From contig JBHHXB010000001.1 of NCBI GenBank assembly GCA_046756825.1, forward strand, positions 1-33,365: a stretch of 33,365 nucleotides of DNA. Reading direction: 5' to 3'. Origin of the DNA: Nitrospiria bacterium (GTDB lineage Bacteria > Nitrospirota > Nitrospiria > SBBL01 > JAADHI01). Positions 1-28,237 of the stretch are shown piece after piece (position 1 is the first letter of the stretch; the number at the start of each line of letters is the position of its first letter). The translations under genes and the position numbers were made by a program. The notes below the pieces were generated by a model. That model did not search any database. It was not told the DNA's origin and saw nothing but the letters and a program-made list of their open reading frames with translations.

Positions 1-356
1 TCCACTTCGGCTTCCTCCACCACGACCAGTTCGATGCAGTACAAACCATCCACATCGGCGATAAAGGTCGGTGTCGCCGTTTCCGGACCGCTGAGCTGTG
101 TCGCGCTGCCCTGTGGAGTGGCCAGAATGCGCCACCGAAAATTGATCTCATCGCCGTCCGGGTCGCGGCTATTCGAGCCGTCCAGAGACACCAATGCGCC
201 GTTTGCCACATTCTGATCCGGCCCGGCGTCGGCGACGGGTTTGTTGTTTGTCTGAACAAGTGCGGCCTGATCCGGTTCGTCATCCACACACCCCGCAAAA
301 AAAAGACTGCAAAGAACCAGAATCGAAAAGAAAAGCCGAAAACCCCGTGTCCGCAC
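1..356 (-). CDS. Lipoprotein with PKD-like domain (C-terminal part cut off by window edge)
   Basis: The minus-strand frame is open from 356 to the left edge; it is absent from the ORF track because no stop lies in the window. GTG at 356 gives VRTRGFRLFFSILVLCSLFFAGC, with n-region, h-region and lipobox FAGC. In-frame ATGs at 413 and 425 are alternative starts. Downstream, ADAGPDQNV..LDGSNSRDPDGDEINFRW is a PKD-type signature. Confidence 0.5.
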   Translation of the reverse strand, partial: MRTRGFRLFFSILVLCSLFFAGCVDDEPDQAALVQTNNKPVADAGPDQNVANGALVSLDGSNSRDPDGDEINFRWRILATPQGSATQLSGPETATPTFIADVDGLYCIELVVVEEAEV

Positions 357-429
357 ACATGTCTCAATATTTGGATATCGGGATTCGCTTCTTATTTTTT
401 TGATGTTTTTCATTTTCTGCACCATATTC

Positions 430-3216
430 CTAGGGTGTAAAACGGGAACGCGCGCGGCTGCGATCGGTCATTTTTTCAGCCAGTTCCCTTCGGTTAAATT
501 CATTAAAAGAAAAACCCGCCGCTCGAAAGGCCTCCACCTTCCAAGTCACTTCCTCTCCCACGGAGATGGCTTTGAGCAAGGGAGAAACCGCCTCGGGAAA
601 GGGCGGCAGGGTGATCTCTTCGAGCGCGCCGGGCACCCAGGCCTGCCACAGACGATCCCCGTTTTTAGCTTCCAGCCTCACGTGATAGAGATCCACCGGC
701 CCGGTTCCGGGCCGCCACGCAAAGACCGGCGTCTCGCCGACATTCGCCGCACCCGGCCCGGGGGACAGCAACACCGGCGGCGCGGGGAGGGAAACATCCA
801 GACTTGAAGGGATTTCGGACAAATTTTGGAGGATTGAAAAACTGCTCGTTTCGTCCGCCTTTTGCGCCAACACGCCCAGAAAAAAGCTTTCAAGCCCCTC
901 GGTCTGAATCGAGCGAATACGATATTGCGAGCCCGGCGACGCTTTCAAAATGTCCGTGTCGGTTCCGGTGAACACGCGGCCCTGCGGCACGACGGCCCCC
1001 ATTGAGGCCATTTTCAGATCGCTCACCTTAAACCCCGCAGGCAGGGAAATTGTGCCCGTCGTTTCAAAAAATACGGGACGCTGGTCGAAAAAAATATCGA
1101 AGGGCAGCCTCCCCCCCGGCCCCAGCGGCCCCAGGCCGGTCCCAAAAGTGAGGTTATAAGACGCCTCATTCGACGCGGCCGAGCCGGTGCGAAAAGCGGT
1201 AAAACCCAGCCGCCGTTTTGAGGCCGGGAAGGACATCCGATACTCCCCGCCGCCGCTTCCCTTCGACATGCGAATCAGGTAATCCCCCTCCGTCAACGCA
1301 GTGATGTTGACATTGCCCGAGGCATCCGTCACGCAGGAGCTGGTACATTCGAGCCCGCCTCCGATCAACAAAAGGTCGCTTCCAGTTAAAGCCGTGTCAT
1401 CGGCCCCTCTCACAGTGAGGGTCGATACGTTCGGAGGGGGCGGAGAAGGCACCTCGCGTTTGACCAATTCGACGAGCCGGACGCTGTTGGGATAGACGGG
1501 AAGCGTCCGCCGGTCTAAAAGCACTCCGGCGGCGTCACGGGCAGTCAAGGTGTACACACCAGCACTCTGCGCCAAGGGGAGATCCAGAACGACAAAACCA
1601 CCGGAGGCATCGGTCTGGCACGAATTCTCGCTGAATGCACATAAAATATTGCCTGAAACGTCAATGGCATAGGCTTTTCCGGCAAATGTTCCCGCTTGAT
1701 CCGTCACGGAAAGCACGGCGTTTGAGATGGGCTCGACCCCTGGATCCCCGTTGAGATCCAAAGCCCCTGTCTTTTTCGTCACCCGGCCCAATATCTCGCC
1801 GTGATTGGGCAGAAAACCCAAACGATTCGGAATATTACCTTCAGCATCCGCCCGGGCGGGGTCTGGAATCCGCGCCTGAATGACCATGTCGGTCAAGACA
1901 CTCAAGGGCACCGCGCTCAAGGGATAGTTCGATTTGGGCCGGTCGTGAAAAGAGACCTCCTGATAGGTCGCCCTGAAACCGCTGCCCGCAGCAATAAAAA
2001 CGACGTAGCGGCTGTTGGACGGACGACCCGAAACCTGATAGTGCCCCGCCGTGACCACGCCGCCATTGGCCGTGAAGGATTCTTCAAACGTGTCGCCGGA
2101 AAAATTGATCACGGCGCGCGGCACCCCGATATTCCCGCCGCTTAACGGGCCTTTTTCCTCTTCCTCCCGGTAGTCGGGCCGAAATGCCACCACCCTGCCG
2201 CTAAGGCTGAGCGTGCTTGAAATGGGGTCAACCGGCAGAGTAAAGACCACCGATCCTTCCGACGGAAGACGGAGAAATCTGAGCCCCACGCCGATGCCCC
2301 GGCTTTCCGAAAAAAGAATCACATCATTATTGGGCACCAATTTCAGAAAAAGAAACCGGCCGTCGTCCGTCGTCGCGGCCAGGGCCGGGTCGAGTTCGCC
2401 CGCCGCATTAAAATAATACGCGCGACCCGCGTCGGCCCCGTTAAAGTATTCCGCCCTCACCTGAACCCCGGACTGGGGGACATGGGCCGCATTGATCACC
2501 GTCCCCAAAACGGCCGTTTCCCCAAAGTTTTGGCGGACACCGGCTTTTTCCGCCCAGAGATCGAGATCCTTCGCATAAACAAAGGTGAGGTTCCGGGGTG
2601 ACGAGCCGTCGAAGTCGATCCGCTGATGCGTGAGGGAGCGGACGGGGCCGTTGAGTTGAAACCCGCCCATGGCATCAATGACCGCCAGAAATGCGGTTTC
2701 GTCTTTCCCGACATCAAACACCTTCCCCTCAATCGACCCGTCGGAGAGCACCTCATCCCTCGGCGCCAGGGGAACCGACACCCGCGAGGCGTTCACTTGA
2801 TAAAACGAGGTGTTTTGAAAGAGGACGGGAAAGGGCGCGTCGGCACAGCCGAAGCAGGCGTAGACGTGGATATCCTGAGGACCGAACACCTCTTCAAAGG
2901 TGGCGATGCCCTGGGAATTTGTGGTGGCGGACCTTGCGCCATCCCTCCCTAAAAAAACCTGGGCGTCGGGAATCGGAGATCGCAGCACCTCGTTAAAAAC
3001 CAGAACCTCCAATCGGCCTTGAATCGGCCCGCCCGCCGTCCCGCCATCCTTGGAGGCAAGCGCGGCCGTCACATTGTGTTGCCCGGTATCGCTGCAGGCC
3101 GCCAAGAACCCCAGCAAAATCATCAGCGGCGCCCACCGAAACCATCGGGTCACGACTGGACCGCGCCGCGCCGCCCCCGGCCTTCGAGATTTTTTAATGT
3201 GTTGCTTGTTCGTCAT
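430..3216 (-). CDS. Large lipoprotein (928 aa) with repeated carboxypeptidase-regulatory-like / Ig-like beta-sandwich domains
   Basis: Lies in ORF 430..3372. The start is moved to ATG 3216, 17 nt after the stop of the upstream gene (3233). This gives MTNKQHIKKSRRPG...LMILLGFLAAC with lipobox LAAC. The motif T(D/N)xxG-hydrophobic-x-hydrophobic recurs (TNSQGIATFEEV, TDDGRFLFLKL, TDASGGFVVLDL, TDASGNVNITAL) and is typical of CarboxypepD_reg-like folds. No catalytic motif was recognised. Confidence 0.7.
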   Translation of the reverse strand: MTNKQHIKKSRRPGAARRGPVVTRWFRWAPLMILLGFLAACSDTGQHNVTAALASKDGGTAGGPIQGRLEVLVFNEVLRSPIPDAQVFLGRDGARSATTNSQGIATFEEVFGPQDIHVYACFGCADAPFPVLFQNTSFYQVNASRVSVPLAPRDEVLSDGSIEGKVFDVGKDETAFLAVIDAMGGFQLNGPVRSLTHQRIDFDGSSPRNLTFVYAKDLDLWAEKAGVRQNFGETAVLGTVINAAHVPQSGVQVRAEYFNGADAGRAYYFNAAGELDPALAATTDDGRFLFLKLVPNNDVILFSESRGIGVGLRFLRLPSEGSVVFTLPVDPISSTLSLSGRVVAFRPDYREEEEKGPLSGGNIGVPRAVINFSGDTFEESFTANGGVVTAGHYQVSGRPSNSRYVVFIAAGSGFRATYQEVSFHDRPKSNYPLSAVPLSVLTDMVIQARIPDPARADAEGNIPNRLGFLPNHGEILGRVTKKTGALDLNGDPGVEPISNAVLSVTDQAGTFAGKAYAIDVSGNILCAFSENSCQTDASGGFVVLDLPLAQSAGVYTLTARDAAGVLLDRRTLPVYPNSVRLVELVKREVPSPPPPNVSTLTVRGADDTALTGSDLLLIGGGLECTSSCVTDASGNVNITALTEGDYLIRMSKGSGGGEYRMSFPASKRRLGFTAFRTGSAASNEASYNLTFGTGLGPLGPGGRLPFDIFFDQRPVFFETTGTISLPAGFKVSDLKMASMGAVVPQGRVFTGTDTDILKASPGSQYRIRSIQTEGLESFFLGVLAQKADETSSFSILQNLSEIPSSLDVSLPAPPVLLSPGPGAANVGETPVFAWRPGTGPVDLYHVRLEAKNGDRLWQAWVPGALEEITLPPFPEAVSPLLKAISVGEEVTWKVEAFRAAGFSFNEFNRRELAEKMTDRSRARSRFTP

Positions 3217-3232
3217 CCTGCTTTTTCCCGCC

Positions 3233-6200
3233 TCAGAAAACGAGCCGAAGCCCGACGGTCCCGACGATTTTTTCATACGACCCCTGGGCGCTCGTGGTCC
3301 CCGACACGAGGGCTTCCTCTGTGTCCGGCGGAATGCTGTCGAGATTGGATCGATGCCCCAACCACGAGCCATTCACCAAAATCTGAATCCCCCGCTCCAG
3401 CCCGATGGTCAGACCAAGACGCACGGACTGACTTTTCGTCTTTCGTTTTTTTGAAAATCCGGTCTCCTGATAAAGATAGTCGCGATAGGCGTACTCGTAG
3501 GCCAGGTTGAGTTGAACACCGCGCATCAAGGGTCTGTCATACTGAATCGACGGAGAGGTTGCCAAAAAGGTAAACTTTCTGCCCTTGCGTCTGGTATTAA
3601 CATTCGCGAAAGCCCGGGCGCCCAGGGTGAGACGCCCGCCCGCCCACTGGCTTCTAAAATAGGTCCCCGAAATCGTGGGCTGATAGGCATCCAGGTCACT
3701 GTTGTTGACGGAATCAAACAGTCTAACCCGGCCCTCGACGGCGAGACTTCCGCCTTCGTCCACATTCGAAAATGTACTGATCGTCACTTCATGTCCCTGA
3801 CTGGAAAGAGCGCCCTCAAACAGGCTGAGCTGGTATTCATATTCAAGGGTCCTTCTTGTTCGATACCCCCTCTTTTCATAATACAGGCGTGTCCCGGTCG
3901 AGAAGAAGGAGACCTGATCCTTGATAAAACTCGACAACTGCGGGGTCAGGCGCAGGCCGAGACGCCGACCGCCGCCGTAATCAAACACCCGCTGATATTG
4001 GCCGACGAGACTGGAAAGAATGTCGTTCGTCGGATCCTCGCTTAAGGTGATGTTGTTATCGACGGTCGTTTGATAGGCGATGGATCGGGTGACAAAGAGA
4101 CGGCTGACGCGCTCTTCGATTTCCTCCCGAAAAGCGGCGGGCAAATCTTTATCCTCCAAGGCAATGTTATAGTGCTTGAGCGCATTCTCAGATTGACCGA
4201 CTTCCTCGTAAAGACTGGCCAGACGCAGTCGTTTCGCCCGGTCTTTGGGCGCAAGCGCCACCGCCTGGTTAAAGTGCCTCAGCGCTTCCCCGGCATTCTT
4301 CCGGCGAAGCGCGATAAAACCTAAATTAAAATACCCCATGGGCTCCTCGGGATCGAGTACGAGCAAGGCCTCAAACTCGGCGCGCGCGGCAGACAGGTTG
4401 CCCTCCCGGCCCGACACAACCCCATTGAGGAGGTGAAAGCGGACCTGAGCAAAACGCCTTACCTTCCCGAAGGTGAGCGGGAGCAGTGCCGCGTAATCCT
4501 GAACGCCCGCCTCTTCCGCCCGGCCCACCTCGATCTGTTCCGCAATCACCTGGAGCATCATCTTGCTGTCTTCGGGGGCAAGCCGGGATAATCGTTGCAA
4601 CAGATGCCGTGCCAGACCCAATTTTTCCTCAAAACGAAACACCTGCCCCCCCGCAGCCAGCCCCGGCAGCGCCGATAAAAAATCGGACTCGGTCCGGACT
4701 TCGCGAATGAGAGCGAGCACCTTGGAAATTTGAATCTCCGAGAGAATCAGATAGGCGTTTTTATCCTTTGGATCCAGTGTCATCACCTTTTCAAAGGCCA
4801 CGACCGCCGCGTCAAAATCCTTGATCTGCTGATAAAACACACCCAGATTAAAAAAGTTCGCGGGGTTGTCCGGCTGCACTTCAATGGCGGTCTGAAACCA
4901 TTTGAGCGCCGATTCAAATTGCCGGGTGCGCATGGCGATTTTCCCCCGGACAGAGAAGGTGCTGACCCGCGCGCTTTCTCCCTCGGCATTTTTAGAGTTC
5001 ACTCCGGCTGCTTTTTCATAAAAAGCCACGGCTTTTTCAAGGGCTTCCCGCTGCTCATAGAGACTGCCGAGATGAATATAGGCCCTCTGGTGACGCGGGT
5101 TTTCCTGAACCGTTTTCAGAAACAAGGCCTCCGCTTTCCGGGTATCGCCCAGTTGAAGATGAATCCTTCCCATGTTGAAATAAAGCGCCGCCTGTGCACG
5201 AGAAGTTTTCAAGGCTCCCTCAAAAACGCTCAAGGCTTCCTTCAAACGTCCCTGTTGCGCCAACAGACTTCCTCTTAGCAGGGGAATTTTTTGATTCGCG
5301 CTCACGCCCCCGGGATTCTCCGCATTGATGTCCACGGCACGGGTAAAGGCCGCAAGGGCTTCCGCAAGCCGTCCCTGACTCTCATACAAGTTCCCAAGAT
5401 TCAGATAGGTTTCCTGGTGTCCGGCATCGGCGGACAGAACTTTTAAAAAGGCCTGCTCCGCCTCTTTCGGCCGCTTTTGAATCATATAAATCCGGCCGAT
5501 GTGATAGTGAAGCTCGGCCTGCTCTCCCGAGAAAGACAGCGCATTCAAAAAGACCGACAGGGCTTCCTCAAAACGCCCGTGGCGGGCAAGCAGCCTCCCC
5601 TGTAATACGGGCATCTTGCTTTTGGCGATTTGCGCGCCCGGCCCTTCCGTATTGATCGCCAGCACTTTTTCAAAACGCGCGAGGGCCTGTTCAATATCCC
5701 CCTGACGCGCGTAAAGATCCCCCAGTCTGACGTGGGCGTCCTGATGATCGGGGTTGATGGCAACGACCTGTTGAAAGGCTTTTTCGGCGGCGGGGTCATC
5801 CTTTTTTTGAAGATAGATCAGACCGATATTGTAGTGCACGCCCGGATCGTCCGGGGTGATTTTTTCGGCTGCCTTGAACAGTCCCAGGGCCTGATCAAAA
5901 TTTCGTGAACGGGCCTGTAAAATCCCCTGAATCATTTTGATTTTAAATCGGCTGACGCTCATCATCTCCCCTGGCGGCCCCAGTTTGAGCACGGCTTCAT
6001 AAACCTCGAGCGCCTCGGATAATTTTTGACGTGCCTCCAATAAACCGGCCAGCCGAAGACGGGCTTCAATGCCGCCCGGATCAAGGCGGATGGCCTCTCT
6101 TAGCGCGGCTTCGGCCGGATCGAGACGCCCCAGCCTTAAGTAACTGATCCCCAGACGAAGCTGAATCTCTGCTTCGTCTGGAAATGTTTTGGACAGGGAC

Positions 6201-6403
6201 TCAAAAAAATCGACGGCATCCTGCCATTTTCCGGCCCGCATAAATTGTCTACCCTCGTCCATTCCTTTTTGAAGCGACGGCTTCGACACCGTCTCCGCCC
6301 AGGCCATGCCGGAAAAGATCAACACAATGGCCACGGCCTGTTTTATGTGCCGCTTCAAGCTCGGATTCAAAAGAAAAATCGGATCCCCGCCGTGAGTTCC
6401 CAT
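3233..6403 (-). CDS. TPR-repeat protein fused to a C-terminal outer-membrane beta-barrel (BcsC/PgaA/PelB/Slam-like architecture)
   Basis: 1056-aa ORF. Signal peptide ..KQAVAIVLIFSGMAWA/ETV. About 700 aa of degenerate 34-residue TPR units follow (repeated A..A...F..AL.L.P....A...LG..Y). The last ~320 aa show alternating-hydrophobic strands and end ..VGLRLVF, the terminal aromatic beta-signal. ATG 6403 overlaps the upstream gene by 37 nt. TTG at 6358 (MKRHIKQAV...) would remove the overlap. Confidence 0.8.
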   Translation of the reverse strand: MGTHGGDPIFLLNPSLKRHIKQAVAIVLIFSGMAWAETVSKPSLQKGMDEGRQFMRAGKWQDAVDFFESLSKTFPDEAEIQLRLGISYLRLGRLDPAEAALREAIRLDPGGIEARLRLAGLLEARQKLSEALEVYEAVLKLGPPGEMMSVSRFKIKMIQGILQARSRNFDQALGLFKAAEKITPDDPGVHYNIGLIYLQKKDDPAAEKAFQQVVAINPDHQDAHVRLGDLYARQGDIEQALARFEKVLAINTEGPGAQIAKSKMPVLQGRLLARHGRFEEALSVFLNALSFSGEQAELHYHIGRIYMIQKRPKEAEQAFLKVLSADAGHQETYLNLGNLYESQGRLAEALAAFTRAVDINAENPGGVSANQKIPLLRGSLLAQQGRLKEALSVFEGALKTSRAQAALYFNMGRIHLQLGDTRKAEALFLKTVQENPRHQRAYIHLGSLYEQREALEKAVAFYEKAAGVNSKNAEGESARVSTFSVRGKIAMRTRQFESALKWFQTAIEVQPDNPANFFNLGVFYQQIKDFDAAVVAFEKVMTLDPKDKNAYLILSEIQISKVLALIREVRTESDFLSALPGLAAGGQVFRFEEKLGLARHLLQRLSRLAPEDSKMMLQVIAEQIEVGRAEEAGVQDYAALLPLTFGKVRRFAQVRFHLLNGVVSGREGNLSAARAEFEALLVLDPEEPMGYFNLGFIALRRKNAGEALRHFNQAVALAPKDRAKRLRLASLYEEVGQSENALKHYNIALEDKDLPAAFREEIEERVSRLFVTRSIAYQTTVDNNITLSEDPTNDILSSLVGQYQRVFDYGGGRRLGLRLTPQLSSFIKDQVSFFSTGTRLYYEKRGYRTRRTLEYEYQLSLFEGALSSQGHEVTISTFSNVDEGGSLAVEGRVRLFDSVNNSDLDAYQPTISGTYFRSQWAGGRLTLGARAFANVNTRRKGRKFTFLATSPSIQYDRPLMRGVQLNLAYEYAYRDYLYQETGFSKKRKTKSQSVRLGLTIGLERGIQILVNGSWLGHRSNLDSIPPDTEEALVSGTTSAQGSYEKIVGTVGLRLVF

Positions 6404-7197
6404 CCGCTTAAGTCAATCTCCAATATCCGCCGCACATTGTCCGGGCCGACATACTGCACGGGGTCGCCCGGCTGTGGAATGGCGCGCGCGACGCCCACGG
6501 CGTCATCCACGGCGTCGCGCTCTAAAAAGGTGTGCCGAAACGATTTGTAAAATAACTGCCTTGTTTTGCCCGTCCTGTAAAGCGCATCCACGCCCACAGC
6601 GAACCACTTCGTTAAATAATAATCCCCGCCGACGCCCCACTCCAACATATAGCCCCCCTCGCTTTCCGCGCGAGAGAGAATGTTCCTCAGAAACTCCTGA
6701 TTCCCTGTATCAAACACATAATTAAAGTCTTCCCGGTAATTCACCTTGATGAGGCTGAACAGACCGATGTCAAGATAAAGGCGGTGTTTTTTGGGAGCAT
6801 CCAGAACATGATAGCGCCCGTGCAAGGCGTATTCATTGAAAGAAACACGAGTCGTTCTTTTCGCCGTGAAGGGCACGATGCCGAAATCCTGAAATTGAAT
6901 CTCGCTCTCCTCGATCGCGGTGGACTCGCCTTCCCAGAACGAGGTTTTCAACATCAGGGAAAAGCGCGGACGGATACGCCACTCGATACCGATGCCGTGT
7001 ACAGGACCGCCTTCCACACCGGGACTGCCCCCCACGCGCGGCGGAATAAAAGTCGTCTGCTGCAGCTGGCCCGTATTCAATAAATTGAGCTTGGCCTGGC
7101 TGTAGCCCGTGGAAATCTGGACATTCCATTCAGCTAAAACATCGGCAGGCCACAGGAACAACCCTAAAAAAATAAACGCGAAAAACAATCCCTTCAT
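6367..7197 (-). CDS. Outer-membrane beta-barrel protein, family unknown
   Basis: 276 aa. Signal peptide MKGLFFAFIFLGLFLWPADVLA/EW. Alternating beta-strand pattern, with C-terminus ..LTAGIRFFF. Confidence 0.7.
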   Translation of the reverse strand: MKGLFFAFIFLGLFLWPADVLAEWNVQISTGYSQAKLNLLNTGQLQQTTFIPPRVGGSPGVEGGPVHGIGIEWRIRPRFSLMLKTSFWEGESTAIEESEIQFQDFGIVPFTAKRTTRVSFNEYALHGRYHVLDAPKKHRLYLDIGLFSLIKVNYREDFNYVFDTGNQEFLRNILSRAESEGGYMLEWGVGGDYYLTKWFAVGVDALYRTGKTRQLFYKSFRHTFLERDAVDDAVGVARAIPQPGDPVQYVGPDNVRRILEIDLSGWELTAGIRFFF

Positions 7198-7440
7198 TCC
7201 ATAACAAACAAAACAGCATTTTTAATATATTTATTGATTTTTTACAAATACTAAATTCACGTCTCCTTATTATCTCACACGATACCGCTCTAAACCTCTC
7301 TCTTCAGCACAAGCGTGACTTTCCCGAAAACAGGATCATCCCTGGAAAAATCGGTTCAAACGAATCTTTTCAAAAGTTCAAGCAAAGGGCGGGTGGATTT
7401 CACGAGGATCGGCGCTAGCTTCCTGAGCGAAAATCGCACG

Positions 7441-8907
7441 CTAAAAGCTATACTTTATTTCAAAAAAAACACGGTCACGATTCACAAAGGTCCCCACAAA
7501 TTGAAACAAACGATCATTCGCCGGTGCCGCGAGATCGGGGAGCAGTGTCTCCCGGTGACCAAAGAAAAAATCCCCGCCCACGGCCAATTGAATACTATCC
7601 GTCATCCTGTACGTCGCCTTTGGCTTGAACAAAACCTCCTCATTGTTAATCAAATAGAGTAAAAAGGCTTGACCCGTGAGCGAGCCTGAGAGAAAGCCGC
7701 GCCGCGCAAACACGCTGATAAAGGTGTCGTACTGGTCTTGAAAGAAAACCGGCTGGTGATTAAAAATAATCCACTGCGAGACGGCCAGGGAAATATCTGT
7801 ACCCAAGAGAATGCTGTCCGCTTCGACGCCCCAGCGCACGTGATCCCGTTTGAGCGCGCCGTTATGATCAAGCCGGTTATCGCCGTCCAAATCGGCTAAA
7901 CGGGTCCCGAAATACTTTCCGGCGATATAAGAGGCCTCGCCCTTTAAAATGACGCGCTTTAAATTCAACATCATCGCCGCGCCGAAAATATGCATCCGAT
8001 GAAATTCCGGATCAAAGACCGGGCCGCAATCCGGGTCGGTCACCGGCTGATCAAATTGCAAGGTGACGGGAAGACATTTCGCCGGCGGGGTGACAAAACG
8101 AAATCCCGTAAATTCGCGAAAAGGTGTCGGAAAATCATCCCAGGTATAAAAATAGCTCAAAGCCAAATCCACCCCCGGCCATGACCGGGAAACACGCAGA
8201 CCGGCTTCTGAATTTCTGAATGTTTGCGGCGGGGACTTCTGACCGGGCAGACGTTGAAACAACTCCCATTCAGAGCCCGGCGGTGCGGGTTTGTGCGGCG
8301 TAATTTCAGGGATCCAGAGCGCCTCAATTTGATACGCCCCCGCGTAATAGTTGGCCTTCGCCATCCATAACGGAATCCGAAAATCAATCAGATCGGGGAG
8401 AATGAATTCTCTGAAATCAAGCGGGTTGATTTCATCCAGTATGCGAAAGCCCAGAAGTTGCTCCCAAACCACGATCTGTCTGCCGATTCGAAGATCAAGG
8501 TTTTGAAACGAGCCGTCAAAATAGACCTCGCGATATTCGGCAAATTCCCGGTTATCTTCTTCTGCGCGTTGAGAGACAAAGGCCAACGGCAGATTGGGGT
8601 CATTGGGCGGATTCACTGTATCGTAATCCGCAAAAAGATACACGGCATCAAGCCAGCCCCATCCCGAGGCAAAAAAATACAGGTTGGGCAGAAGATCCGC
8701 CTGGCTTTCTAAAAAGAGGATGTTTCTGATTTTTGTAAAAGTGGCCGGTTCTCGAATCCTGAAGGCCGTCTCGTTTTTAAGATACCCTCCCAAGCGCACA
8801 CGCGGGAAGTCTGAGTCTTCCGCGGCATAAGGGATTGCGGTTGGGGATAAACATAACGACACCCCGATCAACCACAAAAAAAAACGGGAAAGGACGTTCA
8901 GGAACAC
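7441..8907 (-). CDS. Outer-membrane beta-barrel protein, DUF1302 / alginate-export-like
   Basis: Lies in ORF 7441..9051. The first 48 codons from ATG 9051 would run through a strong hairpin terminator and encode an Arg/His/Pro/Phe-rich non-signal sequence. GTG 8907 gives MFLNVLSRFFLWLIGVSLCLSPTAIPYA/AE, a signal peptide. RLGGYLKNETAFR and IGRQIVVWEQLLGFRILDEINPLD resemble the DUF1302 / Alginate_exp signature (lG+Q.v.WG......D.iNP.D). C-terminus ..FFEIKYSF. Confidence 0.6.
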   Translation of the reverse strand: MFLNVLSRFFLWLIGVSLCLSPTAIPYAAEDSDFPRVRLGGYLKNETAFRIREPATFTKIRNILFLESQADLLPNLYFFASGWGWLDAVYLFADYDTVNPPNDPNLPLAFVSQRAEEDNREFAEYREVYFDGSFQNLDLRIGRQIVVWEQLLGFRILDEINPLDFREFILPDLIDFRIPLWMAKANYYAGAYQIEALWIPEITPHKPAPPGSEWELFQRLPGQKSPPQTFRNSEAGLRVSRSWPGVDLALSYFYTWDDFPTPFREFTGFRFVTPPAKCLPVTLQFDQPVTDPDCGPVFDPEFHRMHIFGAAMMLNLKRVILKGEASYIAGKYFGTRLADLDGDNRLDHNGALKRDHVRWGVEADSILLGTDISLAVSQWIIFNHQPVFFQDQYDTFISVFARRGFLSGSLTGQAFLLYLINNEEVLFKPKATYRMTDSIQLAVGGDFFFGHRETLLPDLAAPANDRLFQFVGTFVNRDRVFFEIKYSF

Positions 8908-8980
8908 ACGGACCTTTTGAATCCTGTGGAGCCTGATTTTTAACGAAAAAAGCGAAAAGTGGCGATCAGGGGCGTGAGGA

Positions 8981-9041
8981 AAAAAGAAGGGCCTATGGTG
9001 CGGGATGAAACGGTATCCTCGCTGCCATAGGCCCCTTTTTT
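8981..9041. terminator. Long hairpin with T-runs on both strands, directly after the second secreted-paralogue gene
   Basis: GGGCCTATGG (8989-8998) pairs perfectly with CCATAGGCCC (9025-9034). An inner GCGAGGAT/ATCC-CGC helix extends the stem. On the minus strand it is followed by TTCTTTTTT, on the plus strand by CTTTTTT. It begins 29 nt after the stop at 9063. Confidence 0.6.
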
Positions 9042-9062
9042 GACACAGCATTCAGAAATAAA

Positions 9063-9740
9063 CTAGAAGCTCTGATCCACCGTCGCGGGCAAACCCGTAT
9101 CAAACACGATGCTTGAGCTGAATCCCGGGGTTGTTGGATCTGTCACAAGCTGATCGATATGAGTGTTGAATCCGCCCGTACCGTCGGGAGTCAGGGTCAA
9201 GTCATTCCGAGTCAAACCCTGACCGGGATCTGTAATGCTTTGGGTGATATTGATATTGGTACCGACCATATCTTCCTGCCCCGGGCCGGTCCCCTTGTTA
9301 ATGATATTCAGATTATCCATCCGGACCAATATGTCCACCGACGGAACAGGCGGGGTGGTCGCCGTACCGCCGTCCGTGGCTGCTTTCAGGCTTTGCTTAA
9401 AGGTGATGTTGTTCGTGGACGTCGTTGTCGTCGCGCCTGTCACGGCACCACCCGGGGTAAAAGTCTCCTGAATAAATTCAGAACCCGTGGAGCCGTCCGG
9501 TTTGCTGCGGATAATCATGTGATTCAAAAGCTGCCCGCCAATCGTCACCTGCTCCTGAAAGAAGACATTATCTCCAATGGCTTCAAACAAACGATTCGTT
9601 CCGCCCGCCAAACCGCAGGCCGCCTGACTGGCGCAGGTCCCGTCGTTAAAGCTGGTTGTCGTCTGCGCTTCCACCATGCCCGCCGAAAACAGGATTCCCA
9701 AGGTCATCAACCCCAGGATTGTATTTTTTAATTTCATCAT
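9063..9740 (-). CDS. Secreted Thr/Gly/Gln-rich protein, unknown family (paralogue B)
   Basis: Lies in ORF 9063..9758. ATG 9740 is preceded by AAGGAGGT. Signal peptide MMKLKNTILGLMTLGILFSAGMVEA/QTT. Shares the blocks FFQEQVTIGG, FIQETF, ITFKQSL and VDIL with the upstream gene. Ends ..VDQSF. Confidence 0.75.
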   Translation of the reverse strand: MMKLKNTILGLMTLGILFSAGMVEAQTTTSFNDGTCASQAACGLAGGTNRLFEAIGDNVFFQEQVTIGGQLLNHMIIRSKPDGSTGSEFIQETFTPGGAVTGATTTTSTNNITFKQSLKAATDGGTATTPPVPSVDILVRMDNLNIINKGTGPGQEDMVGTNINITQSITDPGQGLTRNDLTLTPDGTGGFNTHIDQLVTDPTTPGFSSSIVFDTGLPATVDQSF

Positions 9741-9782
9741 TCCTACCTCCTTAGTCAATGCATTTTCCCTTAAAGTATTCGT

Positions 9783-10520
9783 CTATCTAACTTGAACGAT
9801 GGTCGGCGATCCACCTGTCGTAAAGTCCATGTTCTGGCTAAAGACAGTGGCTCCCAGCGCATCGGTCACCTTCACTTCCTGGGAAATGGTGGTACAAAAT
9901 GGCGACGTAGTCCCGCAAGAGGGGTCTGTTGCCTCCTGCCCCTTCACCACAAAATTAGGGAGAATGTCAACATTCGTGAAGCTCAAGCCTCCGGCCTGTC
10001 CCGCGACAGCGGCCCCTCCGTCCACCTGCTGGTGGATATGAATATCCTGTCCGGGGTCAAGACTGGAGGTCGTCGAAAAACCCGGCCCTGTCAAGGACTG
10101 CCGAAAGGCGATGCTGGTCTGACTCGGCGGCGGCGTCACGGGCGAAGTGGTATTGTTTTGCGTTGTTGGACTTCTTTGGCTTCCCATCAAAACAAAACTT
10201 TCCTGAATAAACGAAGTCCCGATCTGAGAGGCTTCCAAAACGGAGTGAATTGCAAGTTGAGGCGGCGCGGCGGCCCCGCCAATCGTCACATTCACAAATT
10301 CCTGCACAAAGAAACTCCCGCTGCCCATTACGCCCTCTGTCGTCACCAACTGCCCGGAAAGGGGAACGCCGCTTCCGCCGACACCCGAGTGAACAAAGGG
10401 AAACGGCGAGGGGTTATCAGTGAAGGTTGGGGCACCGACTTGCGCTTCGGCCTGTCCAACACCCGAAGTGATCAGCATGCCGATGACTAATAGGAGCAAC
10501 CCTCCTTTTCTTAAAATCAT
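9783..10520 (-). CDS. Secreted Thr/Gly/Ser/Pro-rich protein, unknown family (paralogue A)
   Basis: Lies in ORF 9783..10595. ATG 10520 is preceded by TAAGGAGGAATGGT. Signal peptide MILRKGGLLLLVIGMLITSGVGQAEA/QV. Carries the blocks FFVQEFVNVTIGG, FIQESF, IAFRQSL and VDIL. Confidence 0.75.
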   Translation of the reverse strand: MILRKGGLLLLVIGMLITSGVGQAEAQVGAPTFTDNPSPFPFVHSGVGGSGVPLSGQLVTTEGVMGSGSFFVQEFVNVTIGGAAAPPQLAIHSVLEASQIGTSFIQESFVLMGSQRSPTTQNNTTSPVTPPPSQTSIAFRQSLTGPGFSTTSSLDPGQDIHIHQQVDGGAAVAGQAGGLSFTNVDILPNFVVKGQEATDPSCGTTSPFCTTISQEVKVTDALGATVFSQNMDFTTGGSPTIVQVR

Positions 10521-10657
10521 ACCATTCCTCCTTACATTAAATAACCAGAAAACCTGCTGGGTTCTGTTAAAAATATATTTAATACAAAAATCCATTCAGT
10601 AAACGGCGAATCTCGCACCCCCTGGCATCATTCAACCCATAAGGGCAATGTAGGGGC

Positions 10658-10686
10658 CTTATAAACGAAAACATAACTTCTGTCAA
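10658..10686 (-). promoter_or_regulatory. Sigma70-type promoter for the secreted-paralogue genes
   Basis: Minus strand reads TTGACA (10686-10681), a 17-nt spacer, then TATAAG (10663-10658). The predicted 5' UTR is ~130 nt to ATG 10520. Confidence 0.5.
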
Positions 10687-10829
10687 GCCGGAAGTCCTAA
10701 CAATCGCTTCGATTGATGCTTCCAATCACTCAAGAGACAACGAGGCTCACGCTTAAAACGAGGAGGTTTATCCTTTCCATTTCTGTTTTTGGGGAAAAAT
10801 CACCCGCTTATAGTCTTTTCATGAATCGT

Positions 10830-11768
10830 CTAGCTTTTTGGTCGTTCGTCAAACAGGCCGGAGAGAAAGGCTTCGGGCGTAAAGGGGATGAGGTCTTCGG
10901 TGCCTTCTCCGACACCGACATACAGAACGGGAACTGAAAGGGATTCGACGATGGGAATCACGATGCCGCCTTTGCCGCTGCCGTCCAGTTTGGTGAGGAT
11001 GATACCTGTCAGTCCCACAGCCTTTTGGAAATGCTCGGCCTGGGAGAGCGCGTTTTGGCCCGTCGTGGCGTCCAGCACGAGGATTTTTTGGTGCGGGGCC
11101 TCCGGAATCTGCTTTGAAATAACGCGGGTCATTTTCTTCAATTCTTCCATCAGGTTGTGCTTGGTTTGCAAACGGCCCGCCGTGTCGATCAAAACGTGGT
11201 CCGCCCGGCGCGCCAGGCCCGCGCTGACGGCGTCATAGGCGACCGCGGAAGGGTCGGCTTCCCCATGATGGCGAATCACGTCCACCCCGACGCGCTCCCC
11301 CCAGATGGCCAGTTGATTGGCCGCACCCGCCCGAAAGGTGTCCGCCGCCGCCAATAACACCTTCTTTCCTTCGGATGTGAGCTGTGATGCGATTTTCCCG
11401 ATCGAGGTGGTTTTGCCGACCCCATTCACCCCGACAAAAAGGGTGACAGTCGGAATAACAGGAGAGGCGGCGAGGCCCTGCCCCGTCGCAACCTTGGCCA
11501 GGATTGCTGAAAGCGACGCGCGAAGTTTTTCTTTCAACGCGGACACGTCCGTCACTTCTTTTCGATCCACGGATGCCTTTAGATCGTCAATTAAATCCTG
11601 GGTCACCGCCACGCCAAGATCCGCGCCAATCAGAAATGCCTCCAGGGCATCAAGCATACCGTCGTCGATCTGTGTTTTTCGGTGGAAAATTCCATCGAAC
11701 CCCGAGGCAAAATAGGCCCGTGTTTTCGAGAGCGCAGCCCCTGTTTTTTTGAAAAATCCACTACTCAT
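10830..11768 (-). CDS. ftsY: Signal recognition particle receptor FtsY
   Basis: 312 aa. NG domain with GVNGVGKTTSIGK (P-loop), DTAGR and TKLDG motifs. The start overlaps the ybeY stop (ATGA). Confidence 0.95.
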   Translation of the reverse strand: MSSGFFKKTGAALSKTRAYFASGFDGIFHRKTQIDDGMLDALEAFLIGADLGVAVTQDLIDDLKASVDRKEVTDVSALKEKLRASLSAILAKVATGQGLAASPVIPTVTLFVGVNGVGKTTSIGKIASQLTSEGKKVLLAAADTFRAGAANQLAIWGERVGVDVIRHHGEADPSAVAYDAVSAGLARRADHVLIDTAGRLQTKHNLMEELKKMTRVISKQIPEAPHQKILVLDATTGQNALSQAEHFQKAVGLTGIILTKLDGSGKGGIVIPIVESLSVPVLYVGVGEGTEDLIPFTPEAFLSGLFDERPKS

Positions 11769-13251: not shown

Positions 13252-14301
13252 CTACGATGATGACGGATGATTCGCGGTTTCCAGGGGCGGCTCGCCACCT
13301 GTTTCAGTATAAAGGATCGTCTGCTTCGTGCCCGTCACCCAGCCGACGTTCTGATCGGAGAAGTGAACACCCGTCAAAAACTGCAGGGTTCCCGTGGTCT
13401 GCTGTACCCAGGTTTCTCCACCGTCCTTGGTTTGCAATACCGTTCCGCCCGCGCCAACCACCCAGCCATGATTTTCATCCACAAAGGAAACATCGAGCAA
13501 GAGGGAATTGAGTTCGCTTTTTTGAGCCGCCCAGGTTTTTCCACCGTCCGTCGTTTTTAAAATCAAGCCCGCGCTCCCGACAATCCACCCGATATCCCGG
13601 TTCACGAAAAAAATACGCAGCAGGTCGATTGTCGTGCCCGTTTGCCGGATCGACCAGTTTTTCCCACCGTTTTCAGTATAAAGCAGGTTTCCTTTATGCG
13701 CGGTAATCCAGCCGTGATCGGGGTCGGTAAACAGGGCATAATTCATGGTCAGCCGCGATTCGCCCTTCGCCTTCAACCAGGTCCGGCCACCGTCATCGGT
13801 TGAAAGCAGGTTGCCCTTGATGCCGGTCACCCAGCCCCGCTTTTCATCAATAAAAAAAACCGAGGTCAGATCTTTTTTCACCCCGCTGGGCTGCGGATTC
13901 CAGGTATGGCCCCCGTCCGCCGTATGCGCAATCAAGCCCCGGTCCCCAACCACCCAGCCGAGCCGCTCGTTCAGAAAAAAAATCGACACAATCGGGACCT
14001 TTGTTCCGATTTCCTGCTGTACCCACTCCTTGCCGCCGTTTTCCGTGTGGAGAATCACTCCTTTGTCACCCGTTACCCAGCCCTTTTTGTCATTCAGAAA
14101 AAACAGGCCGCCGAGAGAAGTATCCACGGGAACCGTCTGGACATCCCAACCCGTTGAAATTTCAGAGCGGTCAGGCATCTCGGGGGCCCTTGGGCATCCC
14201 AGGATCAGCAGGCTCAAAAAAATTAAAAGTGGCGCACGCAGGCCAACCCCTCTGTGATTTGATATTTTCACTGTTCTCCCGCAATCCACATTCAGCCTCA
14301 T
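13252..14301 (-). CDS. BNR/Asp-box beta-propeller lipoprotein, Ycf48-like
   Basis: 349 aa with lipobox LLILGC. Repeated Asp-box-like units: TENGGKEW, TADGGHTW, TDDGGRTW, TENGGKNW, TTDGGKTW, TKDGGETW, each followed by G-W-hydrophobic-hydrophobic-G. ATGA overlap with the upstream gene. Confidence 0.75.
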   Translation of the reverse strand: MRLNVDCGRTVKISNHRGVGLRAPLLIFLSLLILGCPRAPEMPDRSEISTGWDVQTVPVDTSLGGLFFLNDKKGWVTGDKGVILHTENGGKEWVQQEIGTKVPIVSIFFLNERLGWVVGDRGLIAHTADGGHTWNPQPSGVKKDLTSVFFIDEKRGWVTGIKGNLLSTDDGGRTWLKAKGESRLTMNYALFTDPDHGWITAHKGNLLYTENGGKNWSIRQTGTTIDLLRIFFVNRDIGWIVGSAGLILKTTDGGKTWAAQKSELNSLLLDVSFVDENHGWVVGAGGTVLQTKDGGETWVQQTTGTLQFLTGVHFSDQNVGWVTGTKQTILYTETGGEPPLETANHPSSS

Positions 14302-15281
14302 TTGACTTTCAAAAGCATCCAGTCTTCTTCCTGGTTTTCATTTTTAAAAAGCCCCTTCATTGTGCCGGCGAACAGGGTCTTTTTTTTCAGGGGATGGGAG
14401 ACCACCGTCAATACGGAGGAGGGCGATTTTGAAAGCAGACGCCACGAATCTCCGCCGTCCGTGCTCTGATAAACACCGTCGCTGTTCCCCGCATAAACGA
14501 TATTTGAATCTTCCCGGTCCACGGCAATGGATGAAATAAAGGTAGTCTTAAAACCTTCGTTTCGCGCTTCCCAGTGGCCGCCCCCATCGACTGATTTAAA
14601 CACGCCTTTTCCCGTGCCTGCGTACACTGTATCGGGATGAACAGGGTCAAACTGGACGGTGTTGACCGCCCAGCCCTTGGTTTCCCGCGAGGCCATCCGC
14701 CATTGCCTCGCGGAGTTACTGGTCATATAAACACCGTCATTGGTCCCCGCCATAATGATCTCCCGGTTACGGGGATGGAAGGTCAGCGAAATGACAAAGC
14801 GGTTGCCCATGCCCATGTTCACATCGGTCCATGAACTCCCGCCGTCGATCGTCAGATAAACACCGTGATTTGTCCCGGCGTACACACGCTTTGACTCGAC
14901 GGGGTCCACGATCACCGCGTTCACCGCCTGCGTCCCCACATTGTCATCCAGCCCATGGCTGACCACATTCCAATGCCCCCCGCTGTCAATACTCCGGTAG
15001 ACGCTGTCGCCGTACGTCCCGGCATAAATCACGGAAGACAGGGAGGGATTCACCGCGATCGAGGCAATATTATAGCTCGTCAAGCCCTTATTCATTTCGC
15101 TGAACGTCGCGCCCCCGTCCTCACTTTTATAAAACCCTCCGCCCGAAGTCCCGACGTAAACGATTTCGGATTTGTGATAGCTAAACCCGATCGAAAAAAC
15201 ATTCGCCCGCCGTTCGCAACCCGTGAAGACGAAAAAAATAAGGACAGGGATGATTTTAAACCGAGGGTAAAATCGCGTCAT
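14298..15281 (-). CDS. BNR/Asp-box beta-propeller lipoprotein
   Basis: Lies in ORF 14298..15335. ATG 15281 gives MTRFYPRFKIIPVLIFFVFTGC (lipobox); ATG 15308 and 15335 are alternative starts. Asp-box units: SEDGGATF, SIDSGGHW, TIDGGSSW, SVDGGGHW, STDGGDSW. Confidence 0.7.
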   Translation of the reverse strand: MTRFYPRFKIIPVLIFFVFTGCERRANVFSIGFSYHKSEIVYVGTSGGGFYKSEDGGATFSEMNKGLTSYNIASIAVNPSLSSVIYAGTYGDSVYRSIDSGGHWNVVSHGLDDNVGTQAVNAVIVDPVESKRVYAGTNHGVYLTIDGGSSWTDVNMGMGNRFVISLTFHPRNREIIMAGTNDGVYMTSNSARQWRMASRETKGWAVNTVQFDPVHPDTVYAGTGKGVFKSVDGGGHWEARNEGFKTTFISSIAVDREDSNIVYAGNSDGVYQSTDGGDSWRLLSKSPSSVLTVVSHPLKKKTLFAGTMKGLFKNENQEEDWMLLKVK

Positions 15282-15427
15282 TTCAGCCCTAAAAAATATC
15301 GTGGGCATCGTACCATATCTTTTTCGCAGAGACAATCAAACCGCAGCCCCTCCCGCTCATTCGAGCCGCCTGATGACCTTTTGCGCCGCGGAATATCACG
15401 GCCTGACAAACCGCCTCGTGATCCTCC

Positions 15428-17383
15428 ATGCCAAGCCCCTTCATTGACATTGATATTAAAGGAAAGTTAGAATATTTGATTGCAAATGAGGCTCTCGTGA
15501 CAACATTAACCCAATCCCAAAAAAAATCAGGCAGCCATCCCCGGCTTGGCGAGTTTCTGTCCCAAAAAGGGCACCTCTCCGAACGGCAAATTAACTGGGC
15601 GCTTGAAGAGCAGAAAAAAACCGGGAAGCGGCTTGGCGAAATCCTGAGCACGCTTAAAATCGTCTCCGAGGACCTGGTCGCGCAGTCCCTGGGGGCCATC
15701 CATGATATTCCCTACGTCACGCCGCACACACTGACCATCGAATCCGATCTCTTTTTGATGATTCCCGAATGGCTTGCCCGCCGTCACCTCGCCGTGCCGA
15801 TCCGGATTCACGAACGGGAGTTTGTCATCGCAATGACCGACCCTTTGAATTACGAAACCTTGAACGACCTTCGGTTTTATGCGGGCATGGCCATCAGCCC
15901 CGTCATCGCCACGCGCAAAAACATACTGGAGACCATCGAACAGAACTATCATTTTGACACTTCTTCTGTCGAAAAAATCGTTCAGGCCTCCGCCAAAGAT
16001 TTTGAAGAAGGCACCCTGCAAGTCATTCCAGACATCGCGGAAGCCAACCTGCTGCATACCGATACCCGTGCACTCGAGGAAAAAAGTCAACTGGGGCCCG
16101 TCGTGCAGCTCACCAATGTCATTGTCGGAAAGGCCATTAAATTGCGGGCCAGCGACATCCATATCGAGCCGGGACAAAAGGATTTTCGCGTGCGCTATCG
16201 CATTGACGGGCTGCTCAAAGAAGAGATGCGGCTCCCCAAATGGGTGCAAAGCCCGCTGGTGTCCCGGATCAAAATTCTCGCCACGCTGGATATCTCGGAG
16301 CGGCGGCTTCCGCAGGACGGCGCCGTTCGTGTCATGGCGGAAGGACGGGCGGTGGATCTTCGTGTGTCCACTCTGCCGACTACCCACGGGGAAAAGGTCG
16401 TGCTGAGAATCCTGGATCAATCGAAGGTCCTGATCGACATCGATCAGGTCGGCCTGCAGGATAAAGACGCCGAAATCGTCCGAAAAATGATCCGAAAACA
16501 GAAAGGGATGATCCTGGTGACAGGCCCCACCGGCAGCGGGAAAACGACGACGCTTTACGCCCTTATTCAGGAGCTCAAGTCGGTCACCAATAATTTAACA
16601 ACCGTCGAAGACCCGGTGGAGTATACGATCGACGGCATCAACCAGATTCAGATCAATAATGAAGTCGGGCTCACATTTTCCAGTTGTCTTCGCTCCATTC
16701 TCCGTCAAGATCCCAATATTATCTTCGTCGGGGAAATCCGAGATAAAGAGACCGCGGAAATCGCCTTTCGGGCCGCGATGACGGGGCACCTGGTTCTTTC
16801 GACGCTTCACACCAATGACGCTCCCTCCACCATTACACGTCTGGTGGATATCGGCATCCCGCCCTACTTGATTTCCTCCAGTCTCGTCGGCGTTATTGCG
16901 CAGCGTCTCGTGCGGAAACGCTGCACACGCTGCAAGGAGCTCATTGGGGAGGAGGATACCGAACCCGACCGCCGCAGAACAGGCTGTTCCCTGTGTAATC
17001 ACACGGGTTTCAGTGGCAGAGTCGGGGTCTTCGAAGTCATGCCCATCACCCCGAAAACCCGTGAACTGATTTCGTCGGGGGCCACCGATGAGGAAATCCG
17101 CGCCGCGAGCACCTCTGTGGGCATGACGACGATGGAGGAGGACGCACTCGTAAAAGCCAGGGCGGGGATGACAACACTGGAAGAGGTGGCGCGCGTGGTC
17201 GAGAAGGAAGAAGTCTTCAAAAGCACCTGTCCGACCTGCCAGCGATCCATCCGCATTGATTTCCTGATCTGCCCCTATTGCGCGGAGGACTCCCCCTATG
17301 TCTGCAATGCCTGCGGGAAACTGCTTCAGCCGGACTGGACGGCCTGTCCCTACTGTCGGCATGAAATTTCACAACATACCTGA
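15428..17383 (+). CDS. GspE/PilB-family secretion ATPase with T2SSE_N-like N-domain and C-terminal tandem zinc ribbons
   Basis: 651 aa. N-terminal GEFLSQKGHLSERQINWALEEQKKTGKRLGEIL matches T2SSE_N/MshEN type. Also Walker A GPTGSGKTT, VGEIRD, the His box LSTLHTNDA and the family tetra-Cys CTRC...CSLC. An extra ~53-aa tail carries two C-x2-C-x10-C-x2-C units. Confidence 0.9.
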   Translation: MPSPFIDIDIKGKLEYLIANEALVTTLTQSQKKSGSHPRLGEFLSQKGHLSERQINWALEEQKKTGKRLGEILSTLKIVSEDLVAQSLGAIHDIPYVTPHTLTIESDLFLMIPEWLARRHLAVPIRIHEREFVIAMTDPLNYETLNDLRFYAGMAISPVIATRKNILETIEQNYHFDTSSVEKIVQASAKDFEEGTLQVIPDIAEANLLHTDTRALEEKSQLGPVVQLTNVIVGKAIKLRASDIHIEPGQKDFRVRYRIDGLLKEEMRLPKWVQSPLVSRIKILATLDISERRLPQDGAVRVMAEGRAVDLRVSTLPTTHGEKVVLRILDQSKVLIDIDQVGLQDKDAEIVRKMIRKQKGMILVTGPTGSGKTTTLYALIQELKSVTNNLTTVEDPVEYTIDGINQIQINNEVGLTFSSCLRSILRQDPNIIFVGEIRDKETAEIAFRAAMTGHLVLSTLHTNDAPSTITRLVDIGIPPYLISSSLVGVIAQRLVRKRCTRCKELIGEEDTEPDRRRTGCSLCNHTGFSGRVGVFEVMPITPKTRELISSGATDEEIRAASTSVGMTTMEEDALVKARAGMTTLEEVARVVEKEEVFKSTCPTCQRSIRIDFLICPYCAEDSPYVCNACGKLLQPDWTACPYCRHEISQHT

Positions 17384-23368: not shown

Positions 23369-23433
23369 TATATTTATTCTCCCTTTCAAATCACATTCCA
23401 GTCAAATGGACTCGTAAAACGTTCCAAAAGAGA

Positions 23434-24435: not shown

Positions 24436-24466
24436 AATTACTTTGCCTCCTTTTTCATACGACTGC

Positions 24467-25747: not shown

Positions 25748-25777
25748 ACCTTCTCCTCTGTTCCTTTCTTTGCTACG

Positions 25778-25815
25778 TTGGCCCAAGGGGAGCGGGATTG
25801 CCCCCCCCTGGCCAA
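25778..25815 (-). promoter_or_regulatory. GC-rich stem-loop in the CydA-like / cytochrome c intergenic spacer
   Basis: TTGGCC (25778-83) pairs with GGCCAA (25810-15). Inner G-runs (25787-96) pair with the C8 run (25801-08). No U-tract follows. Confidence 0.3.
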
Positions 25816-25829
25816 TCAAACTCCCGTCA

Positions 25830-27764: not shown

Positions 27765-27790
27765 TAAGCTTTCCTCCTTAAGGAAGTTTT

Positions 27791-27816
27791 AAAGAAAAGA
27801 CTGCCAAAAAGCAGTC
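27791..27816 (-). promoter_or_regulatory. Short hairpin plus U-tract between mini-ORF and CydA-like gene (possible attenuator or processing site)
   Basis: Minus strand reads GACTGC-tttttg-GCAGTC followed by TTTTCTTT. The stem is only 6 bp. Confidence 0.3.
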
Positions 27817-27832
27817 AAGGTTTTTGCCAACC

Positions 27833-27991: not shown

Positions 27992-28064
27992 TTATCTGCC
28001 CCTTTATTTTTAATCAGCTCAGGTTACAAGTAAGCTTACAACTCAACTACATCAACGCTTGAAT

Positions 28065-28181: not shown

Positions 28182-28237
28182 GACGAGAACCCCCCTTAAT
28201 ACTGTTGGCTACACTTTTCCGGTGTTGAAATGACGGG

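Follow-up and report, generated by a model that had tools for sequence, protein, structure and literature searches.

Outer-membrane proteins of the DUF1302 family are modelled as 18-strand barrels of the AlgE/Occ type and are predicted to bind DUF1329 proteins; no structure has been solved for the family, and the function of DUF1302 modules is regarded as unsettled (PMC13499233). In Proteobacteria, DUF1302 genes are cofit or co-induced with genes encoding DUF1329, a COG4447 BNR protein, and an RND exporter (bioRxiv 10.1101/072470; bioRxiv 10.1101/2020.07.04.188060; PMC6394551). Other systems that invite comparison when barrels, lipoproteins, and small secreted proteins are encoded together are type XI (Slam) secretion, exopolysaccharide porins such as BcsC and PgaA, and the curli and Fap fibre systems. 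Here, we describe a locus at positions 1-10686, on the minus strand, of contig JBHHXB010000001.1 from a metagenome-assembled genome (MAG) of a Nitrospiria bacterium; the entire contig, 33,365 bp, is referred to as the window. The locus encodes two small secreted paralogues (A and B), a DUF1302 barrel protein, two further predicted barrel proteins, and two giant lipoproteins.

Judged from profile searches and gene order, the locus is real, conserved, and restricted to one clade, and it matches no characterised secretion or transport system; a literature search found no published description of it. The interpretation that we favour, with a probability of about 0.38, is that of a Sec-dependent module, confined to the outer membrane, that would export proteins to, or display them on or beyond, the cell surface.

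A conserved seven-gene locus in Manganitrophaceae-like Nitrospirota

Read along the minus strand, the locus contains the following features, in this order:

10658..10686, minus strand: promoter-like site, with a -35 element TTGACA (10686-10681), a 17-nt spacer, and a -10 element TATAAG (10663-10658)
9783..10520, minus strand: paralogue A, 245 amino acids (aa), Sec signal peptide ending GQAEA/QV, isoelectric point (pI) 4.5, rich in G, T, S, V, Q, and P, two Cys
9063..9740, minus strand: paralogue B, 225 aa, Sec signal peptide ending GMVEA/QT, pI 4.2, Thr-rich, two Cys
8979..9036, minus strand: hairpin and U tract resembling an intrinsic terminator, between B and the DUF1302 gene
7441..8907, minus strand: DUF1302-family outer-membrane barrel protein, 488 aa from GTG 8907, signal peptide ending IPYAA/EDSD
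6367..7197, minus strand: probable small outer-membrane barrel protein, 276 aa, signal peptide ending DVLA/EWNV, amphipathic strands, C-terminus GIRFFF
3233..6403, minus strand: TPR-barrel fusion, 1056 aa, with about 750 aa of TPR followed by a 287-aa C-terminal domain (3236-4096)
430..3216, minus strand: 928-aa lipoprotein, lipobox LAAC/S, beta-sandwich modules of the CarboxypepD_reg type
1..425, minus strand: N-terminal part of a PKD lipoprotein, lipobox FAGC/V, PKD domain (E 4.7e-10), cut by the contig end

This inventory and order agree in every listed element with a preliminary description of the same DNA, which had been made from the sequence alone. Its statement that the locus holds no enzymes was borne out, since in Pfam and NCBIfam profile searches none of the products showed a domain of an enzyme type. 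The targeting signals that it had supposed can be read in all products: A, B, and each barrel protein carry a signal peptidase I site, and both lipoproteins a lipobox. Its proposal of a new system had been made to depend on two further points, and on both the outcome was in its favour: profile searches assigned none of the products to a characterised polysaccharide, lipopolysaccharide/lipid, or TonB system, and the genes are syntenic in relatives. As for a TonB-dependent uptake locus in particular, no Plug, TonB_dep_Rec, or TonB/ExbBD domain was found in the products of the window or among the neighbours.

Profile searches against sequences in the PDB returned nothing meaningful for A, B, the 276-aa protein, the barrel domain of the TPR protein, or the 928-aa lipoprotein, nor for C376, a secreted protein of the relatives that is described below. 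Profile-profile tests showed no relationship of the three barrels to one another, nor of the secreted proteins to the lipoprotein. An Rfam search of positions 1-11000 found no riboswitch and no known RNA, and the 243 nt that separate the DUF1302 and 276-aa genes hold no conserved small open reading frame.

The distribution of the locus was assessed through the A family, for which an indexed search returned 29 proteins, from Candidatus Manganitrophus and other Manganitrophaceae-like Nitrospirota. When 1.84 billion representative proteins were scanned exhaustively with HMMER, only five true clusters emerged, all from Manganitrophaceae-like Nitrospirota; A represents an orphan family of extremely narrow distribution. 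Five loci came from a GTDB scan and one from a metagenome scan with the 276-aa protein. Two of the relatives, strain Mn1 (L001) and GCA_016200325 (L005), are members of the Manganitrophaceae in a published comparative study (PMC9040806).

Ten loci were long enough to judge gene order (L001, L005, L008, L009, L011, L012/L013, L014, L015, L017, and L019). All ten, which come from different genera, have the same order of A, B, DUF1302, 276-aa, TPR-barrel, ~900-aa lipoprotein, and PKD lipoprotein genes, so the arrangement is more than chance; conservation of the gene set across genomes was one of the checks proposed in the preliminary description. Nine of the long loci are intact, L012 being frameshifted; in these nine, A is 48-81% identical to that of the window, B 56-79%, the DUF1302 protein 65-81%, and the 276-aa protein 52-80%. 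In Manganitrophus-type loci the TPR protein is only ~35% identical to that of the window, and the ~900-aa lipoprotein 42-46%. Overall, A, B, the DUF1302 protein, and the 276-aa protein hold together as a conserved set at 47-82% identity, while the TPR and 928-aa proteins fall to 35-45% in loci of the Manganitrophus type. As a separate observation, the DUF1302, 276-aa, TPR-barrel, and both lipoprotein genes are split by frameshifts in L012/L013 (CP114561.1, a "complete" Manganitrophus MAG), which probably reflects long-read assembly error and not pseudogenisation.

Housekeeping genes lie 3' of the PKD gene in the relatives. The 5' neighbours vary by sub-clade, with ftsY in some loci and a gene for a Big_5 lipoprotein in others, so that the block moves as a unit. 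Within 10 kb on either side of the locus in relatives we found no gene for an enzyme, an ATPase, an inner-membrane part, DUF1329, an RND protein, or a TonB-dependent receptor.

Conserved adjacency may also arise between units that have nothing to do with each other. In such a case, A and B, with C376 in the relatives, would form an envelope operon with a role of its own, and the downstream genes would form a general outer-membrane structural or lipoprotein-display unit that is its neighbour by descent. The strong terminator between the two sets of genes and a spacer of 150-650 nt in relatives would fit this explanation, and because all loci belong to one narrow clade, synteny is weak evidence of coupling. 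Locus L010 fits it as well: this 8-kb contig (1-8124) of Nitrospirae bacterium nzgw269 has C376-A-B followed by convergent unrelated genes, including one for a histidine kinase, in place of the barrels, and is the only locus in which the two units are separated. However, in 10 of the 11 informative loci the two units stay adjacent and in the same order, across lineages that are only ~60% identical in these proteins and that differ in their upstream neighbours, and L010, as a short MAG contig, could be a rearrangement or a misassembly. We consider two unrelated units unlikely.

Secreted proteins A, B, and C376

The start of A agrees with the NCBI call, and the protein is identical to ACE5F7_00035. 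The promoter-like site upstream of it matches the consensus at 11 of 12 positions; the mismatch is the final base of the -10 element, a G where T is usually invariant, and it is because of this missing T that a promoter scan did not list the site. The site is not conserved at the DNA level, as the region fails to align with L008 and L009, and a promoter at 10658-10686 is plausible only. The 5' leader of A is not unusual in structure (z -1.8). Both A and B are preceded by a perfect ribosome-binding site, AAGGAGG, which is rare in this contig. Downstream of B, the terminator stem (~8987-9036, GGGGCCUAUGG...CCAUAGGCCC) is followed by UUCUUUUUU; the hairpin has a folding energy of -31.7 kcal/mol (z -3.68), and one in 200 shuffled sequences folded equally well.

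In composition the two proteins are alike, with 2-4% Lys plus Arg, ~35% Thr plus Gly plus Ser, and pI values of 4.2-4.5. Such a composition is typical of surface or extracellular proteins. In plain BLASTP the match between A and B is weak or marginal (E 5e-4), and a hidden Markov model of the A family does not retrieve B. Profile-profile comparison with hhalign (23 A and 10 B sequences) gave a probability of 98.3% and an E-value of 2e-14 over 187 columns, which span nearly the whole of both proteins, and the motifs FFxQE, FxQE[ST]F, and [AT]F[RK]Q are common to both. Taken together with the weak BLASTP match, this shows that A and B are true paralogues, as had been supposed, albeit old and distant ones.

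The preliminary description had likened the locus to those for curli (csgBA plus csgG) and Fap, in which case a functional amyloid or fibre would have A and B as its major and nucleator subunits. A small secreted paralogue pair does precede outer-membrane components here, export would be Sec-dependent and ATP-free as in these systems, and A and B are rich in Gln and Thr, with recurring hydrophobic-x-Q-x-hydrophobic motifs. This analogy did not survive closer comparison at the level of sequence, however. Neither protein has internal repeats above shuffled controls (best 12-mer pairs 30-31, compared with 25.6-25.7 ± 3.4-3.5 and a maximum of 37-38 for the controls), whereas curli subunits have imperfect strand-loop-strand repeats and FapC and FapB have repeats of their own. 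A and B match neither CsgA, CsgB, FapC, nor any solved structure, and Pfam and NCBIfam searches found no CsgG, CsgE, CsgF, FapF barrel, or FapD C39 peptidase; FapF appeared only among generic barrel matches to a poor structural model (E 1.2). Both proteins are ordered, not of low complexity, and strongly conserved over their full length, with two conserved Cys each, and for these reasons look like globular folds. An amyloid in the manner of curli or Fap is therefore highly improbable.

AlphaFold prediction of A from 23 sequences gave a predicted local distance difference test (pLDDT) score of 43.7, and Foldseek returned only generic, non-significant matches. Two candidate relationships of A were rejected. 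The label "CHRD domain-containing protein" on the Manganitrophus orthologue in UniRef (NKE70891.1/UniRef100_A0A7X6DPB4) is not upheld, as Pfam finds no CHRD domain in any of the 23 members, and the match of a 1758-aa repeat protein to the A profile (E 5.7e-4) looks like a short compositional match.

In every relative, a third secreted protein of ~370-390 aa, C376, is encoded directly upstream of A (L008 8811-9920, L009 8821-9933, L015 8802-9902), between A and ftsY or the Big_5 lipoprotein gene; in Manganitrophus-type loci it is the Big_5 gene that lies ahead of C376. Poly-Gly tracts follow its signal peptide and recur in mid-protein and at the C-terminus. Profile-profile comparison showed no significant relationship to A or B, despite similar short motifs. 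No homologue is present in the 33 kb of the window, where only ~310 bp are found at the equivalent site (10521-10829); its absence is due to either lineage-specific loss, relocation, or an assembly gap. Beside the Big_5 lipoprotein gene directly upstream of locus L019, we also noted an FGE-sulfatase family gene (L019 3085-4089) that overlaps its start.

Probable outer-membrane barrels, lipoproteins, and neighbouring genes

The DUF1302 protein is the only one of the three barrel proteins whose barrel has a family assignment above threshold. It matches PF06980 with an E-value of 6.8e-18 and 65.4 bits (cut-off 23.2), covering profile positions 95-363 of 541, in line with the barrel type named in the preliminary description, and its orthologues in relatives are likewise annotated PF06980. 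The start of the gene was placed at GTG 8907, which lies 3' of the terminator.

This assignment raises the question of whether the locus is a transport module of the DUF1302 type, for uptake or export, acting on a small or hydrophobic substrate or on an envelope lipid. A and B would then replace the LolA-like DUF1329 as periplasmic or surface binders, and the lipoproteins would capture the substrate or hand it over. DUF1302 acts alongside DUF1329, an RND exporter, and a BNR/YCF48-like protein of COG4447 in Shewanella, Pseudomonas, and Castellaniella (bioRxiv 10.1101/072470; PMC6394551); examples of such proteobacterial modules are Sama_1588-1591, PP_0765/0766, and AmeABCD. In the window, two tandem lipoproteins resembling YCF48/BNR beta-propellers (PSII_BNR, E 7.5e-51; lipoboxes LILGC and VFTGC) are encoded on the minus strand 2.7 kb upstream of the locus, at 13252-14301 and 14298-15335, and the pair is found at the same upstream distance in L008, L009, and L015. 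The Manganitrophus-type loci have no BNR genes close by, and this link to the DUF1302 modules is suggestive at most. Moreover, no DUF1329 (PF07044) or RND (COG1033) gene is present in the 33-kb contig or within 10 kb of the loci in relatives, the partners of DUF1302 here are instead orphan families, a TPR-barrel, and giant lipoproteins, and the host belongs to the Nitrospirota. No LolA-type protein, and no solved protein of any kind, shows similarity to A or B, and the composition of the two would seem unlike that of typical periplasmic binding proteins. We regard a transport module of this kind as possible, if rather doubtful.

The 276-aa protein matches only one family, OMP_b-brl, below threshold (E 0.0017). 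It has no sequence relative in the PDB, and an exact-sequence look-up gave no match.

In the TPR protein, the repeats are strongly recognised by Pfam (TPR_2, E 4.5e-80). For the C-terminal 287 aa, an amphipathicity scan and manual reading indicated ~14 amphipathic strands, the last ending in GLRLVF. The C-terminal 287-331 aa of the window protein and five orthologues had no Pfam match at E-values up to 1-10, and the barrel domain had no sequence match in the PDB. An AlphaFold model of this domain, based on three sequences, had a pLDDT score of 45.1 and showed a partial sheet of long hairpins, with scores of 58-77 for residues 100-230. Foldseek searches with this sheet gave only generic outer-membrane-barrel matches (E >= 0.016). 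The model agrees with a transmembrane barrel and is too poor to classify it.

With 1056 aa and a long TPR scaffold fused to a C-terminal barrel, this protein resembles BcsC, PelB, PgaA, and the AlgK-AlgE pair, and for AlgK-AlgE the likeness extends to the DUF1302 barrel, which resembles AlgE in fold by published models (PMC13499233). The TPR-barrel could accordingly be read as an exopolysaccharide export porin, its synthase encoded elsewhere and the other products being accessory matrix components. The matches to the NCBIfam models are confined to the TPR part, though, and are far below the cut-offs (61.8 vs. 858 bits for BcsC; 51.6 vs. 366.65 bits for PgaA). The barrel appears to have ~14 strands and not 16, it matches no barrel family, and no synthase, glycosyltransferase, or polysaccharide-modifying enzyme is encoded within 10 kb of any locus. 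An exopolysaccharide porin is thus very unlikely.

One CarboxypepD_reg domain of the 928-aa lipoprotein passes the Pfam threshold (38.9 vs. 32.3 bits), and three regions of the protein are weakly interrelated (hhalign 44-75%). Full-length relatives of the PKD lipoprotein comprise ~840-1230 aa, with PKD, Laminin_G_3, and Kelch beta-propeller domains and no catalytic domain above threshold. Domains of the PKD, LamG, Kelch, and prealbumin-like types are typical of surface binding proteins. Neither of the two lipoboxes is followed by Asp at position +2.

The remainder of the contig carries housekeeping genes (ftsY, ybeY, phoH, accD, ahcY, and metK), the two YCF48/BNR-like genes, a T2SSE-type ATPase gene, and a cytochrome c/bd-like oxidase cluster. 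The ATPase, of the T2SSE/PilB type with an MshEN domain and a C-terminal double zinc ribbon, is encoded at 15428-17383 on the plus strand; it adjoins the BNR genes in L015 too, and the contig has no other pilus or secretion genes. The cluster at 21590-31479 encodes a cytochrome c of the dihaem type joined to an EB_dh (haem b) domain, two more candidate c-type cytochromes, and, on opposite strands, two divergent proteins resembling cytochrome bd subunit I. It resembles the unusual terminal-oxidase clusters of Manganitrophaceae that have been discussed in the literature (PMC9040806). Within this stretch lies a gene of the FGE-sulfatase (formylglycine-generating-enzyme-like) type (28587-29420).

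A possible surface export module and its nearest analogues

In the export or display module that we favour, the genes would form two transcription units. The first, consisting of the promoter, A, B, and the terminator, and headed by C376 in relatives, would yield abundant small proteins, all-beta and acidic, in which Thr, Gly, Ser, and Gln are frequent, with A and B (and C376 in relatives) serving as cargo or subunits. The second, which may be reached by read-through or from a start of its own, would make the envelope machinery, namely a DUF1302 channel resembling AlgE/Occ, a small barrel, and a ~14-strand barrel to which a long TPR scaffold in the periplasm is fused, together with two giant lipoproteins that may act as surface binding proteins. 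Because no ATPase, inner-membrane, or TonB-type component is encoded, the drive for any translocation would have to come from folding or assembly on the outside of the cell, as it does for curli, Fap, type V, and type XI systems. A perfect ribosome-binding site and a strong terminator after small genes are the usual layout when an abundant subunit is encoded ahead of its machinery. The signal peptidase I sites and lipoboxes, the surface-type composition of A and B, the constant gene order, the lack of enzyme and energy genes nearby, the layout of the TPR protein and its neighbours, which recalls type XI secretion, and the joint conservation of A, B, the DUF1302 protein, and the 276-aa protein argue for this reading, under which A, B, and the lipoproteins would be located at the surface, channels would be paired with cargo, and the two units would be functionally linked.

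Several findings weigh against it. Neither the 276-aa protein nor the barrel domain of the TPR protein could be assigned to a family, and both AlphaFold models, of A and of the TPR-protein barrel, are poor because the alignments are not deep. The two units are separated in L010, and in a clade this narrow conserved adjacency could partly reflect shared descent. Finally, proteobacterial DUF1302 has been linked to the handling of hydrophobic compounds or envelope components, not to protein export (bioRxiv 10.1101/072470; PMC6394551; bioRxiv 10.1101/2020.07.04.188060).

A more specific version of the favoured reading would be an undescribed export or assembly pathway, confined to the outer membrane and to Manganitrophaceae-like Nitrospirota, in which A and B (with C376 in relatives) pass through the DUF1302 barrel and/or a TPR-linked 14-strand barrel of no known secretion family and build a protein layer on the surface together with the giant lipoproteins. 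In this full form the proposal is unlikely; if it is true, such a layer could be important to cells that live on solid surfaces of Mn(II) carbonate and Mn oxide. To our knowledge, the hosts belong to the only known lineage of manganese-oxidising chemolithoautotrophs. Since their surface must handle both an insoluble substrate and an insoluble product, a surface module that is strongly conserved and specific to the clade makes a sensible target for proteomics and cryo-electron tomography.

If the module does export or display proteins, it would add new outer-membrane components to the few ATP-independent two-step secretion routes (curli, Fap, type V, and type XI), namely a DUF1302 barrel that lacks the partners it usually has and a TPR-barrel that belongs to neither the DUF560 nor the BcsC/PgaA families. 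A new functional context would also be gained for DUF1302, a widespread family without a solved structure or proven function. If, on the other hand, the locus encodes a substrate channel with accessory proteins, it would be an ordinary, though orphan, envelope locus.

Among the described systems, type XI (Slam) is the nearest analogue in architecture and gene logic, and here the comparison drawn in the preliminary description held for architecture only. The likeness lies in a periplasmic TPR region joined to a predicted barrel of ~14 strands, as estimated from the amphipathicity scan, manual reading, and the partial low-confidence model, with genes for lipoproteins and small soluble secreted proteins next to it and no energy source encoded (PMC8406197). 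Kinship at the family level did not stand. The DUF560/SlipAM profile PF04575 is not matched, and the TPR region, at ~750 aa, is about five times longer than the ~140 aa of NilB/Slam (PMC8406197). At the sequence level, Pfam and PDB searches detected no 8-strand cargo barrel of the TbpB type in A, B, the 928-aa protein, or the PKD protein. There is also no TonB-dependent receptor as a partner, and the phylum lies outside the Proteobacteria. Taken together, the locus is best described as a variant of the envelope modules that are confined to the outer membrane, not demonstrably new in kind.

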